In this document: piece by piece, positions 649-8,234 of the stretch
Layout of the letters: every line of letters starts with the position of its first letter
How positions within the stretch are numbered: position 1 is the first letter of the stretch
Assembly: GCA_041498815.1 (NCBI GenBank)
Contig: JBGQJC010000001.1
Coordinates: forward strand, 49,773 to 113,772
Length of the DNA stretch: 64,000 nt
Direction of reading: 5' to 3'
Source of the DNA: Alphaproteobacteria bacterium
GTDB taxonomy: Bacteria; Pseudomonadota; Alphaproteobacteria; DATDPM01
Made by a program: the position numbers and the translations under genes
The notes under the pieces: model-generated
The model's input: only the letters and a program-made list of their open reading frames with translations
Database searches by the model: none
Told to the model about the DNA's origin: nothing

Positions 649-924
649 TCACGTATCGCTCGGCATGGCGTTGGAGAGATATTTGCAGTTGAAGCCGATG
701 CCTATGTCAAAAGCGTCTTCCTGATCCTGCTCAGAATATTCCGCCGCAAGCCGAGCTTGGCACTGAGCTTCATCTGCAAATGGACCTTCGGACGTCCCCT
801 CAAACCTAGAGGGGAACTGGATATTGACGATATACCAGCCTGGGCCCTGAAAAACTCTTGCCGATGCCGGATCAAACCCGGCAATAAGAAATAGGAGCAC
901 AATCGAGAGTAAGGGTATGCGCAT
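649..924 (-). CDS. small secreted protein, paralog A (signal peptide; conserved PGWY..EGTS..GPFADE..C.ARL..NCKYL core)
   Basis: The ATG at 924 gives MRIPLLSIVLLFLIAGF, a signal-peptide-like N-terminus. The protein shares an ordered motif set with the divergent ORF at 1206-1454. Confidence 0.5.
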   Translation of the reverse strand: MRIPLLSIVLLFLIAGFDPASARVFQGPGWYIVNIQFPSRFEGTSEGPFADEAQCQARLAAEYSEQDQEDAFDIGIGFNCKYLSNAMPSDT

Positions 925-1205
925 GTTCCACCTATCGTGAGGTTTGCTCGACCAATTCCTCAACCGACCATAGCCGATCACTGACGCCCGCCGCCATCGC
1001 TGGCGTCATGCCGAGGGTCTTATGCACGCGCACGAAATTGTAATGCGTGAAGCGCGGGCGCTTCTCGCCTTTGGGGCCTCGGGGCATGGGTCTAATATCG
1101 CGCGTTCATAGCAAGTGCGGGAGGGGCTATATGCGCTTAGTGGGGATAGTGGCGATTTGCCGCCTGACATTGAATGGCGTGGCCAAAACCGCAGAGAAGA
1201 AGGTC

Positions 1206-1454
1206 ATGCCCATCGTCAAAACAACACTCGCCGCCTTTGGCTTATTTATTCTGCCGACGGCGGCGATCTGCGCCGACGCAGTCCATTGGACGGCCCCCGG
1301 TTGGTATGCTTGGGTTGACGTTGAAGAGGGCACATCTCTCATTTATGGCCCGGTCGCAGATGAGCCAACCTGCAAGGCAAGATTGCCGCACGATACACCG
1401 ACCGCGATTTATTACTGCGTCTACTTGGCCAATAGGTCGGATTGGGAAGGGTGA
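1206..1454 (+). CDS. small secreted protein, paralog B (signal peptide; PGWY..EGTS..GPVADE..C.ARL..YCVYL core)
   Basis: ATG at 1206. MPIVKTTLAAFGLFILPTAAICADA is a signal peptide. The same ordered motifs and two conserved Cys occur as in the ORF at 649-924. Confidence 0.5.
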   Translation: MPIVKTTLAAFGLFILPTAAICADAVHWTAPGWYAWVDVEEGTSLIYGPVADEPTCKARLPHDTPTAIYYCVYLANRSDWEG

Positions 1455-2664: not shown

Positions 2665-4011
2665 TTAATGCCGGGTTTGGGCGGCGGTGCGGCTGCAACG
2701 GGGCGGTTTGTTGATCAGGCCCCAGCCGAAGGTGTCGTCCCGGCCCGGCGGCCCCAGGTCCACGGCCTCGCGGCTCAAGGAATGGCGGAAATTGTCGGCG
2801 GAGGTCGCGCCGCCCGCGGCGATGTCGGCCGCGATCCGGCTCGTCAAATACGGCACGGCGAAAGAGGTGCCGCTCTGGAACTTCCCGCCGCCCGGCACCG
2901 CCGTCCACATCTGCACCCCGGGGGCGGCAAAAGCGACATAGGATCCGCGGTTGGCAAAGGAATAGATGGCATCCGTCGAATCGATGGCGGTGACGCCGAT
3001 CACTTGCTCATAGGCCGCCGGAAACGCGGGCCGGTCATAAGTGCCCCAGTTGCCGACGGCGGCGGCCAGCACCATGCCGCGGCTTGACGCCTGGTTGACC
3101 GCTTCGTGCAGAATCCGGTTGTCGGCCCCGGCCATGCTGAGATTCACGGCCTGCACATGCGCCGACGACAGCCAGTCGATGGCCTTCACCATCGCGATCA
3201 CATCGGCGACTTCGGCGCCCTGGTCGTTGAACGTGAAGATGTTCCCGGCCAGCAGCTCGGCGCCCGGCAAAAGCCCGCCGAAGCCCTGGGGATCGGGCTT
3301 GCCAACCAGCATCGCCGCGATGGCGGTGCCGTGGTCCGCGGGCGCCGGCGTGCGCGTGGGCAGTATGAACGACCGGTACATGATTTTCTGGCCGGCAAGG
3401 GCGGGGTGCGTGACATCGACGGGCGTGTCCACCATGCCGATGCGCAATCCCTCGCCGCAGGCCGCATCGATACCGGACCAGCCGATCGCGGTGCGCGCCA
3501 GGCTTTGATCGGATTCGCCGCGGGCGGTTTGGAACTGGTGGTTGGCGTCGATGATCACGCCCGGGAATTGCCGGCGAAGGGCTGCGACCGCCGCCGGCAC
3601 CGGCATCCCGGCGGGCGTGGCCAGCCGGAGCACATCGAGCGACAAGGCGGCAAAATGCAATTTTTCCAGAGTCCGGAAGCCCGCCGCCTCGAACCCCTCC
3701 GGCGCATTGGCGACCACGACTTCGTTCGGCTCGAACCAGGTTTCGGGCGCAAATGCGTTTCTCGTTTCTGGCCTCGTTTCTGGCCTCGCTCCGGGCCTCG
3801 GCCCATTCGGGCCGGAAGTCTTTGGCGCGCCCGGTTGCGCGGTTGGCTGTCCCGGCACCTCGCGCAGTTCCTTCAATTGGCCTTGCGAGTCGTATTCGAG
3901 AATCGAGGAATCCGCGTGCGCCAGTGCCCGCGCGCCAACAACGGCGGCTCCCGCCACCAGCAGCAGTGCGGCGGTGCGTAAAGAAAATTTCGTAAATATT
4001 TTCCAACACAT
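2665..4011 (-). CDS. secreted subtilisin-like serine protease (peptidase S8)
   Basis: N-terminal signal peptide. The catalytic triad blocks are GMVDTPVD (Asp), HGTAIAAML (His) and GTSFAVPY (Ser). An internal RPETRPETR tandem repeat is present. Confidence 0.85.
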   Translation of the reverse strand: MCWKIFTKFSLRTAALLLVAGAAVVGARALAHADSSILEYDSQGQLKELREVPGQPTAQPGAPKTSGPNGPRPGARPETRPETRNAFAPETWFEPNEVVVANAPEGFEAAGFRTLEKLHFAALSLDVLRLATPAGMPVPAAVAALRRQFPGVIIDANHQFQTARGESDQSLARTAIGWSGIDAACGEGLRIGMVDTPVDVTHPALAGQKIMYRSFILPTRTPAPADHGTAIAAMLVGKPDPQGFGGLLPGAELLAGNIFTFNDQGAEVADVIAMVKAIDWLSSAHVQAVNLSMAGADNRILHEAVNQASSRGMVLAAAVGNWGTYDRPAFPAAYEQVIGVTAIDSTDAIYSFANRGSYVAFAAPGVQMWTAVPGGGKFQSGTSFAVPYLTSRIAADIAAGGATSADNFRHSLSREAVDLGPPGRDDTFGWGLINKPPRCSRTAAQTRH

Positions 4012-4035: not shown

Positions 4036-5268
4036 TTAGCTCGCCCGATCGCGGACTTCGCCCGGCTTTATGAAGCGCACGGACGGCAGCTGCACGGTCA
4101 CGGTGGTGCCCATTGCGATACGGCTTTCGAGCGTGAGCGTGCCGCCGTGGGCCTCCGCCATCGCTTTGGCGAGCGGCAGGCCAAGCCCGGTGCCGTCGAA
4201 CCGGCGCCCGAGCTTGCTGTCGATTTGACCGAAGGGCATCAGGGCCTTTGCGATGTCTTCTTCGGCAATCCCGATTCCGGTGTCGGTGACGACGAGCAAG
4301 ACACGGCCTTTGACGTCGCGCTCGACCCGAACCAGGACGCGTCCGCCGGGAAGCGTGAACTTCACCGCATTCGCAACCAGATTGAGGAGAAGCTGGCGCA
4401 GCAGCCGCTTGTCGCCGCGGATGAAGCAAGGATGCTCCCGGATGTCGGTTTCGAGCCGCACGCGGCCTTCGGTCGCGCGTTGGCGCACCAGGCGTAGCGT
4501 CCCATCGACGAGTGTTTTGGCCGCCACCGTTTCTTCGCGCAGCACGAGCTTGCCGGCCTCGATCCTCGAGATGTCCAGGATGTCGTTGATGATTTCGAGC
4601 AGATGCTCGCCGCTCGATAAGATGTCCTGCGCGTAGCCGCGGTAGCGTTCATACGCGTCCGCTCCGAAAGCGCCATCGGCGATGATCTGCGAGAATCCGA
4701 TGATGGCGTTCAAAGGCGTGCGCAGCTCATGGGTCACGGCGGCCAGGAATTGGGCCTTGCTCTTGTTCGATTCCTCGGCCGCAAGCTGGGCGCGGTCGAT
4801 CTCGTGGTGCCGCTGAATCAAATGTTTGGCCGCGGCGTGCAACAGCGATTTTGCCGTGGCGATGCCGAGGTACCGGCCGGCCTCGGTCACGATGAGGGCG
4901 CCCGGGAGCGCGCCGCAGCATTCTTCCGCGGCCAGACTGGCCACCCGCTCCAGATCGTCCGAAACCTCGACCGCGATAGGGGCCCGGTTCATGATTTTCT
5001 CGACCGGTTCGTTTTCCCCATGGTTCGGGGTAAACCGGCCGGTCATGCCGGCGAAGAGCTCGGCGCGGGATACGAGCCCGACGGGTTTGCCCTCCTCCAC
5101 CACCGGAAGTGCTGGAAGGTCGGGATGGGCGGTGAAAATCGCTTCCGCCTCGCCGATCGTGGCGCCGCTCCCCAGGGGCGCAACCAGGCGCACCCAGCCG
5201 GCGGCGGGTGTTTTCTCCGGCGATTCTTCGATCGCCGGCGCAATCGCAGCGGATTTTGCTAAAATCAC
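4036..5268 (-). CDS. sensor histidine kinase (N-terminal CBS-pair-like sensor, HisKA, HATPase_c)
   Basis: H-box [16 protein letters not shown]. The C-terminal segment GTGLGLPLAK belongs to the ATPase domain. The N-terminal ~150 aa resemble tandem CBS motifs. The gene lies 24 bp upstream of the S8 protease on the same strand. Confidence 0.8.
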   Translation of the reverse strand: MILAKSAAIAPAIEESPEKTPAAGWVRLVAPLGSGATIGEAEAIFTAHPDLPALPVVEEGKPVGLVSRAELFAGMTGRFTPNHGENEPVEKIMNRAPIAVEVSDDLERVASLAAEECCGALPGALIVTEAGRYLGIATAKSLLHAAAKHLIQRHHEIDRAQLAAEESNKSKAQFLAAVTHELRTPLNAIIGFSQIIADGAFGADAYERYRGYAQDILSSGEHLLEIINDILDISRIEAGKLVLREETVAAKTLVDGTLRLVRQRATEGRVRLETDIREHPCFIRGDKRLLRQLLLNLVANAVKFTLPGGRVLVRVERDVKGRVLLVVTDTGIGIAEEDIAKALMPFGQIDSKLGRRFDGTGLGLPLAKAMAEAHGGTLTLESRIAMGTTVTVQLPSVRFIKPGEVRDRAS

Positions 5269-6519: not shown

Positions 6520-6655
6520 GCCTCGGGAGGCTAGGCAAGACTCCGGGGCGGCGACAAATCACGACTGCGATACCATGGCCCTCCTCCGCCGTCCGGCAAC
6601 TATTTGAGCGGCCCAGGATGGACGGGTATTCGCGCGCCGGGCTAGAACACCCCTG

Positions 6656-6745
6656 GATGGGTGGCCGAGCGGTTTAAGGTACCGGTCTTGAAAACCGGAA
6701 AACCCGCAAGGGTTTCGTGGGTTCGAATCCCACCCCATCCGCCAG
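6656..6745 (+). tRNA. tRNA-Ser (anticodon UGA), 90 nt with long variable arm and encoded CCA
   Basis: Acceptor stem ggatggg/cccatcc, anticodon loop cuUGAaa, a long extra arm and the T-arm ggttcgaatcc. Confidence 0.9.
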
Positions 6746-6976
6746 TTATACCGCAACCCGTTGATCTTCCAGCAAGCTGCTGATCCAGCAAACTTTTTTG
6801 TTCCTGGTTGTTACACCAACCTGTTACACCGGGAGCATGAAAGACATGAGCAAACATCCCCGATTGGTGGCCCGTGGTCGCCGCTATTATTTCCGCGCCA
6901 AAATCCCTGCCGATCTCGTTGAGCATGTGCCCCTAACCAGCGAGGGTAGCCCTTTTGGACGGTTGGGACGGATCGG

Positions 6977-7927
6977 GTGTCAACGAAATCGACGCCAGCA
7001 CGTTCCAAATCGTCGAAACTGGCCAGATCATTCGGAAGATCAGCTAGCGGTATCTTCGTGAAATGGACATATCCATGCGCGTTCACATGCGCGCCAGTAT
7101 CGAGTTCGTTGGCGAGCGGAGACGTGGAGGGAACGGCGGTGTGGAAGAGGATTGTGCGGGCGATTCGCGACGCACTCGTTTCGCCAGCACACGATGACGA
7201 GTACATTTCGCGAGAGTTATTTCACTTCGTTGGGCGTACGCATCCGGACAACGACGAAGCCAATTACGGGATTCTGTCAAAGATAATTTCGTCGCGAACG
7301 GTATCGCATCCGCCTCACAACAGCGACTGGGGCAAAATTAGCTATACGATCACTTCGACGGGCGGATTACTCGAAGGGACGCTCATTGAGCCGACGATTA
7401 CATGCTACAGCGATATCCCGTTGCGCAGCCTGCGAATCCATATTGAGAAATACGGCAAATTTGGTCTTTCATTTCATCGCGAGCCTTTGATTTTTCATGG
7501 CGCTAGGCCCGTCACTTATGTGCCGGTCGATTATGGGCCGGGCAATGTTCACGACTCTCCAGCGCAGGGGCGGTATTTAATCGCAGGCTTCGAGGCAGCA
7601 TATCGTGGCTTTATACGTCACATTTATGATAATGAAGCTCGGGCTGTGAGATCAAGCGTTATTGGCAAAGTGGCCGAAAATCGCGCTCAAACAGTTGAGG
7701 CCGTCAAACGCATCTTTGAGAAAGATTTTCTGGCTTTCATAAAAACGTATGATGACCGACTCCCGAAGGATCATCCAAACAACTACTACATGGAACGTGA
7801 GTGGCGGAAACTCGGGAACTTCCAGTTTACGCCGGATCAAGTAATCAGGGTGGTTGTTCCTTCTGCCTATCAAAACCAGATCGCTCGCGCGTTTCCGAAC
7901 TATGTAGATAAAATCTACACGATCTAG
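6977..7927 (+). CDS. hypothetical protein, sole cargo of the low-GC islet at tRNA-Ser (start uncertain; GTG at 7139 possible)
   Basis: The ORF is markedly AT-richer than its flanks from about 7180 to 7930. It has no ATG inside until residue 270. The C-terminal block is NYYMEREWRKLGNFQF. No family could be assigned confidently. Confidence 0.6.
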   Translation: MSTKSTPARSKSSKLARSFGRSASGIFVKWTYPCAFTCAPVSSSLASGDVEGTAVWKRIVRAIRDALVSPAHDDEYISRELFHFVGRTHPDNDEANYGILSKIISSRTVSHPPHNSDWGKISYTITSTGGLLEGTLIEPTITCYSDIPLRSLRIHIEKYGKFGLSFHREPLIFHGARPVTYVPVDYGPGNVHDSPAQGRYLIAGFEAAYRGFIRHIYDNEARAVRSSVIGKVAENRAQTVEAVKRIFEKDFLAFIKTYDDRLPKDHPNNYYMEREWRKLGNFQFTPDQVIRVVVPSAYQNQIARAFPNYVDKIYTI

Positions 7928-8234
7928 AAAATCGCACCTCTATCGAATAGCGAGTGCAGTTAGTTCATTGCACGGTGCTGCGCCTGGGAGCTACAAGCCG
8001 GGATACGCGAGCTTCTCAAGCGCCTCGCGCTTCACACTCAAAGACGCTCCGCCCGAGTACATGCCATACGTTGTCGTTGGCTTGTCGTGCCCGATAATGT
8101 CCGCCGCTACACCCTCGGGCACCCCGGCGTTCTCCAACAGTGTTGCGACTGCTACCTCAAACTGTTACACCAGACGGGCAACTATGGCCTAAAAAAGCTA
8201 GGATTTCCGCTGGTTTCAGCGTCTCGCTGGCTTC

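Follow-up and report, generated by a model that had tools for sequence, protein, structure and literature searches.

An uncatalogued, mainly alphaproteobacterial family of small two-cysteine proteins with predicted signal peptides, represented by a divergent gene pair

The two small open reading frames (ORFs) A and B, found in a 64,000-nucleotide stretch of an alphaproteobacterial contig (hereafter, the window), belong, as judged from sequence comparison, to a real and uncatalogued family of predicted exported proteins that is mainly alphaproteobacterial. We consider it likely that A and B are separately transcribed genes, each encoding a Sec-exported, disulfide-stabilised binding module of the periplasm. 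The family is compact, missing from curated libraries and widespread in environmental Alphaproteobacteria, which would justify a new domain entry. It should also be considered that uncatalogued small secreted families are common in metagenomes and that this one overturns nothing; it attaches to no mechanism or phenotype, and its novelty is that of a domain family within the small disulfide-stabilised periplasmic proteins. The practical gain is a corrected annotation (start codons, signal peptides and paralogy), while the domain itself offers a possible tractable target for structure determination and for a search for its periplasmic partner.

Results

Reading frames, start sites and conservation between strains

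The features considered here are listed in Table 1. The coordinates of both ORFs, their divergent orientation and the 82-residue length of B stand as in the initial annotation, while A encodes 91 residues rather than 92 and the gap between the two measures 281 bp. For A, the JGI gene call gives the same 91 residues, and a Shine-Dalgarno-like AGGTGG site lies 3 nt 5' of the ATG. For B, the JGI call begins further upstream, and a GGGAGG site 6 nt before the ATG at position 1131 counts for this longer start. Nonetheless, because all three of the strain differences within the extension are non-synonymous and because relatives of B are found without such an extension, the start at position 1206 is favoured and the upstream segment is probably a 5' leader rather than coding sequence.

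When the window was compared with the sister strain L003, there were 3 differences over the 276 positions of A and 3 over the 249 of B (1.1-1.2%), as against 6 of 89 and 7 of 96 positions in the flanking non-coding DNA. Non-coding DNA near the ORFs is 7-11% divergent between strains. Over two strains, the changes in B comprise four that are synonymous and one that is conservative (R to K), with such counts being few as the available strains are only 1-2% divergent.

Some properties of the pair would suit ORFs that are open by chance, in non-coding DNA or in mobile DNA undergoing decay. The GC3 values of 0.54 (A) and 0.61 (B) are low as compared to 0.75-0.85 for neighbouring genes, an IS fragment is adjacent and no promoter consensus was seen, in that no sigma-70-like consensus was found in the gap (925-1205) and the EcfG-type GGAAC..CGTT general-stress promoter motif is absent upstream of both A and B. 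We nonetheless assign this reading next to no probability, as other organisms have dozens of homologues that agree in length and layout, with E-values down to 2e-24, as coding sequence is about 6-fold more conserved between strains than are the flanks, and as a confident fold is predicted for B. The homologues and the strain conservation of the coding sequences refute it in practice. The initial annotation had reckoned with spurious ORFs should homologues or conservation be lacking; both were found, and on these comparative grounds we treat the two ORFs as real genes.

Table 1. Features of the analysed region (positions refer to the window)
Feature	Position	Strand	Description
Low-GC segment	547-1570		Carries A, the IS1 fragment and B; flanked by a GDSL-like hydrolase gene and the radical SAM gene
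ORF A	649-924	minus	276 nt, 91 aa and stop; member of the minor 'A-like' clade
Mature domain of A	652-858	minus	69 aa, pI about 4.1, two Cys
Predicted Sec signal peptide of A	859-924	minus	22 aa, MRIPLLSIVLLFLIAGFDPASA; ASA|R cleavage site, then RV
Divergent intergenic gap	925-1205		281 bp between ORF A and ORF B
IS1-family transposase fragment, decayed	932-1087	minus	51 codons; ends 8 nt upstream of the A start
In-frame upstream extension of B	1131-1205	plus	25 codons; within the JGI 107-aa call
ORF B	1206-1454	plus	82 aa and stop; member of the major 'B-like' clade
Predicted Sec signal peptide of B	1206-1274	plus	23 aa, MPIVKTTLAAFGLFILPTAAICA; cleavage before DAVHW
Mature domain of B	1275-1451	plus	59 aa, pI about 4.5, Cys33 and Cys48
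Radical SAM/SPASM gene	1571-2596	minus	CX3CX2C at YCNLKCAGC
S8 subtilase gene	2665-4011	minus	Signal-peptide-like N-terminus, by eye
HisKA histidine kinase gene	4036-5268	minus	Follows the S8 gene

Members, motifs and range of the family

A HMMER profile built from the two mature sequences, as the initial annotation had suggested, revealed the family. Searched exhaustively against 1.84 billion cluster representatives, this profile gave 39 matches at E<=1e-3. Of these, 38 are credible; the other, P0033, is a 1026-aa repeat protein that was considered spurious and dropped. A 30-sequence profile added 47 further clusters, with E-values down to 2e-24. None of the 47 carries a precomputed Pfam domain and all are unnamed or 'hypothetical', except for P0050, to which JGI attaches the stray label 'opacity protein-like surface antigen'. 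When A or B was used singly, word-indexed protein searches returned only near-identical sequences from the same species. Likewise, a genome scan with the two-sequence alignment gave no match, while a 15-sequence alignment did, with all of the matches being MAGs with alphaproteobacterial labels (Rhodobiaceae, Caulobacteraceae and Micropepsaceae). No member was found in the plasmids and viral contigs searched, and motif strings returned nothing relevant from the searchable literature.

Across the family, the medians are 58 residues for the length of the mature domain and 4.05 for its pI, and exactly two Cys are present in 72 of 75 mature domains. The GWY and GP motifs and the two Cys are invariant, while in the major clade near-invariance extends to a W preceding GWY, a Y following the second Cys and P.WD at the C-terminus. 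The short islands of conservation first noticed between A and B correspond to the invariant positions (GWY, GP and both Cys).

The domain also appears in longer architectures. Two-domain relatives include P0005, P0007, P0008, P0009, P0021, P0028 and P0034, as well as proteins at loci L029 and L030. P0009 and P0028 have a hydrophobic C-terminal stretch resembling a membrane anchor, and P0005 has a lipobox-like LAGC, together with a sub-threshold match to LptM_cons (21 bits vs. a cut-off of 27.3). At locus L014 (2653-3183), a divergent domain copy (PPWRAAWY...GGTPYDDKAACERDL) is fused to TPR repeats, and in P0030 two domain copies are fused to ankyrin repeats.

Homology and divergence of A and B

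The motifs quoted in the initial annotation (PGWY, EGTS, GP.ADE..C.ARL and C.YL.N) line up in the alignment of A with B, as do both Cys. BLASTP aligns the two proteins at E=9e-9, with 38% identity across 69 columns. For an independent test, we used an HMM of 62 B-like relatives from which A, the clade of A and B were all left out. This HMM gave 41.6 bits for A and 70.9 bits for B, as compared to a best score of 8.0 bits among 1000 shuffles of A. As a model lacking both proteins scores A far above its shuffles, the similarity between A and B reflects homology rather than chance, in agreement with the paralogy proposed earlier. With the family HMM, A and B score 71.5 and 92.3 bits, respectively.

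A neighbour-joining tree built from 71 mature domains puts A and B into separate clades, and in this set their mature identity is 33%. A clusters with P0003, P0006 and P0036 (56, 51 and 38% identity, respectively), which resemble A in having its long loop and a C-terminus of the form A(M/L)P(S/T)D; P0003 comes from another organism. B lies within the large clade having W.G(A/P)GWY ... P.WD, and its best match is P0041, from another organism (50%). The view that this is not a recent duplication is thus upheld, as each protein is nearer to a relative elsewhere than to the other. Because of the different clades and the 33% identity, we regard A and B as old paralogs, or as a pair of which one was acquired by transfer, and not as the outcome of a recent local duplication.

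Signal peptides, predicted fold and proposed role

Judged by eye from the sequence, the N-termini of A and B fit the type I signal-peptide pattern, with a basic N-terminus, a hydrophobic core of 10-15 residues and small residues at -3 and -1; the n-h-c layout is accompanied in A by A-x-A. The same layout recurs in all aligned relatives (30-sequence alignment), and signal-peptide-like N-termini are found family-wide, the domain being preceded by a median of 22 residues. The secretion proposed in the initial annotation is thus the likely fate of the whole family.

AlphaFold2 modelling of mature B with a 50-sequence alignment gave a pLDDT of 91.7 and a pTM of 0.75. The model consists of a strand (residues 9-16), a second strand (19-27), a helix (30-35) and a third strand (44-51); the helix contains Cys33 and the third strand Cys48, such that one disulfide could pin the helix to the sheet. 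As compared to B, A carries insertions at the hairpin turn as well as in the loop from the helix to strand 3. These insertions map mainly to loops of the B model, which is consistent with a shared fold. Searches of the PDB and of viral models with the B model returned no informative match, so that a confidently predicted fold is unmatched among the solved and viral-model structures searched.

Combining these data, we propose the following. Each precursor would be exported by Sec, with a signal peptide of about 22 residues being removed. The acidic mature domain (58-69 residues) would adopt, in the periplasm, a fold made up of a beta-hairpin followed by a short helix and a third strand, and the invariant Cys in the helix and strand 3 would form a single disulfide that holds the helix to the sheet. 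The domain would most likely have a non-catalytic role in the periplasm, as a binding or adaptor module that is possibly dimeric. For an enzyme, the domain is too small and has too few invariant polar residues. A binding role is suggested by the small size, by the lack of invariant polar residues except for Cys and by the tandem copies, and further by the fusions to TPR and ankyrin repeats and by the forms that look membrane-tethered (P0009, P0028 and P0005). As such, the ideas of binding and of dimerisation both draw on domain architectures, with dimerisation being hinted at by the tandem-domain relatives. The model of a two-domain relative has a pTM of 0.49 and shows no confident inter-domain geometry; as this arrangement is of low confidence, we infer a dimer only tentatively. 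Since the clades of A and B separated long ago, the two proteins probably have different partners, or else pair with each other. Among the searches made, no sequence or fold relative of known function was found.

The acidity of the domain could also be read as pointing to binding or buffering of periplasmic cations (Ca2+ or other metals) through the loop between the helix and strand 3. There are 9-15 acidic residues per about 58, in keeping with the median pI of 4.05, and most B-like members have a D/E-rich stretch (LP.DDDE) before the second Cys. However, this loop varies in both length and sequence and contains no canonical metal-binding motif, the family alignments contain no invariant D, E or H positions, and no metal-related neighbour recurs. 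We thus consider cation binding to be quite unlikely and favour the binding or adaptor module proposed above.

Comparison with catalogued families and known systems

The family had not been recognised in the initial annotation, and it is likewise unmatched in Pfam, NCBIfam, PHROGs, PADLOC and the PDB. When 30 members were scanned against Pfam-A (2025), none gave a match at E<=0.01 and none reached a gathering cut-off; in the Pfam and NCBIfam scans of these 30, no model was matched by more than one member. NCBIfam 20.0 gave no match for A or B, PHROGs v4 and PADLOC 2.0 gave nothing meaningful for the family, and profile searches of PDB sequences were empty or insignificant. The sole Pfam model to touch A was DUF6316 (PF19837), over the GPFADEAQCQARL stretch. 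With E=0.18, 12.1 bits against a cut-off of 28.5 and a match in only one of the 30 members, this was treated as chance.

BA14K and DUF4189 are small alphaproteobacterial secreted Cys proteins of unknown function that are common in Hyphomicrobiales-type genomes and are often multi-copy. The A/B family resembles them in being short and in having a signal peptide, a small domain and conserved Cys, but differs in its set of motifs (W..GWY, GP, C and C.Y). The BA14K and DUF4189 Pfam models were matched by none of the 30 scanned members at E<=0.01. The cysteine-stabilised alpha/beta (defensin-like) folds offer another comparison, as they too are of about 50-60 residues and a disulfide between helix and strand is possible in both. 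The A/B family, however, has one possible disulfide rather than two or more, lacks CxxxC...CxC, follows the order strand-strand-helix-strand and is strongly acidic rather than cationic. No defensin-like match came from the fold search.

Local setting of the pair

The gap between A and B contains a decayed transposase fragment. In tblastn searches, positions 932-1087 matched the C-terminal part of IS1 family transposases (E=7e-10 to 9e-6, 56-71% identity); four of the seven matches are annotated as IS1 family transposase and lie on alphaproteobacterial plasmids, with the best matches being in Hyphomicrobiales. A full-length relative has 294 aa, of which the fragment keeps about 51 codons. The N-terminal part is gone and no terminal repeats flank the fragment. 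In L003, the fragment has an additional 93 bp, and 17 of 156 positions are changed (11%), making it the most divergent stretch locally. We regard this fragment as a scar and not as an active element. Because the fragment lies inside the gap, we do not regard the gap as a clean bidirectional or shared promoter region. The surrounding low-GC segment has a GC content of 56%, as compared to 63% for the window. Given the low GC and the IS1 scar, the pair seems to sit in a compositionally foreign, IS-scarred islet.

Elsewhere in the window, a second low-GC stretch (about 6600-8000; 45-57% vs. 63% for the window) starts at a tRNA-Ser (6655-6744) and contains an ORF with an AbiGi domain (7124-7927, plus strand). 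This stretch is probably a tRNA-linked island with an abortive-infection or toxin-antitoxin gene.

The radical SAM neighbourhood

A distance of 116 bp separates the ends of B and of the radical SAM/SPASM gene, and the S8 protease gene is next. This setting resembles that of QhpD and QhpE and was, therefore, tested as a rival explanation, in which the radical SAM/SPASM enzyme and the S8 subtilase would mature A and/or B by introducing Cys-Asp/Glu thioether cross-links before export, in the manner of QhpC. QhpC is the thioether cross-linked gamma subunit of quinohemoprotein amine dehydrogenase. Like the QhpC/QhpD/QhpE system, the locus has a small polypeptide containing Cys and Asp/Glu, destined for the periplasm and encoded beside radical SAM/SPASM and S8 genes. 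In addition, the S8 protein shows a sub-threshold likeness to QhpE (76 bits vs. a cut-off of 165), inspection of the ORF list beside the radical SAM gene run brought up no further small candidate for a precursor, and the invariant Cys of the family are near conserved acidic residues (ADE..C).

The differences from the Qhp system are, however, considerable. B and the radical SAM gene are convergent and hence do not form one operon, and a Sec-type signal peptide takes the place of a leader that is cleaved in the cytoplasm. The signal-peptide-like N-terminus of the S8 protein (by eye) is unlike QhpE, which is cytoplasmic. None of the radical SAM, S8 and HisKA proteins reached an NCBIfam equivalog cut-off, with the radical SAM protein being below every one. 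Family members had no Pfam match, QhpC-type models included, and likewise none in NCBIfam (E<=0.01). The gene association is absent from the other family loci examined: phmmer searches with the radical SAM, S8 and GDSL proteins found no relative at the fetched family loci, and at three later loci no Radical_SAM or Peptidase_S8 domain is listed. Finally, the compact fold predicted for B would let the two Cys simply pair. Such maturation before export is, in our judgement, very unlikely, even if it would define a new class of enzyme-cross-linked secreted mini-proteins. The suggestion in the initial annotation that the conserved islands might mark cross-link sites thus found no support beyond a disulfide, given the absence of radical SAM, S8 and GDSL relatives at the other loci examined. 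Similarly, we give very little credence to the broader alternative that the Cys are cross-linked by the radical SAM/SPASM enzyme with trimming by the subtilase, or that A and B form an obligate heterodimer, either of which would represent a new class of enzyme-matured secreted mini-proteins in Alphaproteobacteria.

Genomic arrangement across relatives

To describe the arrangement of family genes, the family HMM was run over six-frame ORFs from the window and from every fetched locus. The initial annotation had raised the question of whether relatives always occur as divergent pairs. This is not the case, as the divergent pair was seen only in the source species (the window, L001-L003, L022 and L023), while about 17 other contexts hold a single member. 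L014 presents a same-strand tandem, with the TPR-fused divergent member directly upstream of a canonical member. No third member was found in the 64-kb window. The Micropepsaceae MAG GCA_044220975.1 has at least two unlinked members, P0056 and P0063, on contigs JBGAPZ010000024.1 (L008) and JBGAPZ010000039.1 (L032), and the family can thus be multi-copy and dispersed within a genome. Neighbours vary by locus, are shared only among closely related loci, and include TPR proteins, a DinB-family protein, a hybrid kinase, an M23-like protein, a GerE regulator, an MFS transporter and a TacA antitoxin. The side-by-side position of A and B looks like a local accident rather than a family trait. Divergent pairing and the radical SAM neighbour are, therefore, both negative results at the level of the family.

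These contexts also bear on whether the proteins might be periplasmic immunity or inhibitor proteins directed against a peptidoglycan hydrolase, a protease or a secreted toxin and carried on mobile DNA. Small acidic disulfide-containing periplasmic proteins are typical of immunity and inhibitor proteins, a class that A and B would fit. The low-GC segment with its IS1 fragment, the unlinked copies on separate contigs of one MAG, the SLT_2, RlpA-like and PBP5 peptidoglycan-remodelling genes upstream in the source contig, and the M23-like gene beside a family member in L010 all point in the same direction. On the other hand, no toxin, effector or hydrolase gene recurs beside members at the fetched loci, no PADLOC or PHROGs match was obtained, no member was found on the plasmids or viral contigs searched and no known inhibitor was matched structurally. 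We thus consider an immunity or inhibitor function unlikely and retain a periplasmic binding or adaptor module as the preferred role.

Two recurrent neighbours were seen at individual loci. A gene for a protein of 179-181 aa lies directly upstream of a family member at L012 (3118-3657), L013 (4397-4936) and L017 (4266-4811). The L012 product matches Pfam DinB, and the L013 and L017 copies have near-identical N-termini; recurrence of this gene may only reflect relatedness of the MAGs. At L004 (6250-6543) and L008 (6253-6540), which represent two related MAG lineages, a conserved ORF of 95-97 aa follows a family member 13-16 bp downstream. Its product has a signal-peptide-like N-terminus, contains GYGQITLVNQT...DLYVDDHYGCRA, has no Pfam match and may be a lineage-restricted operon partner.
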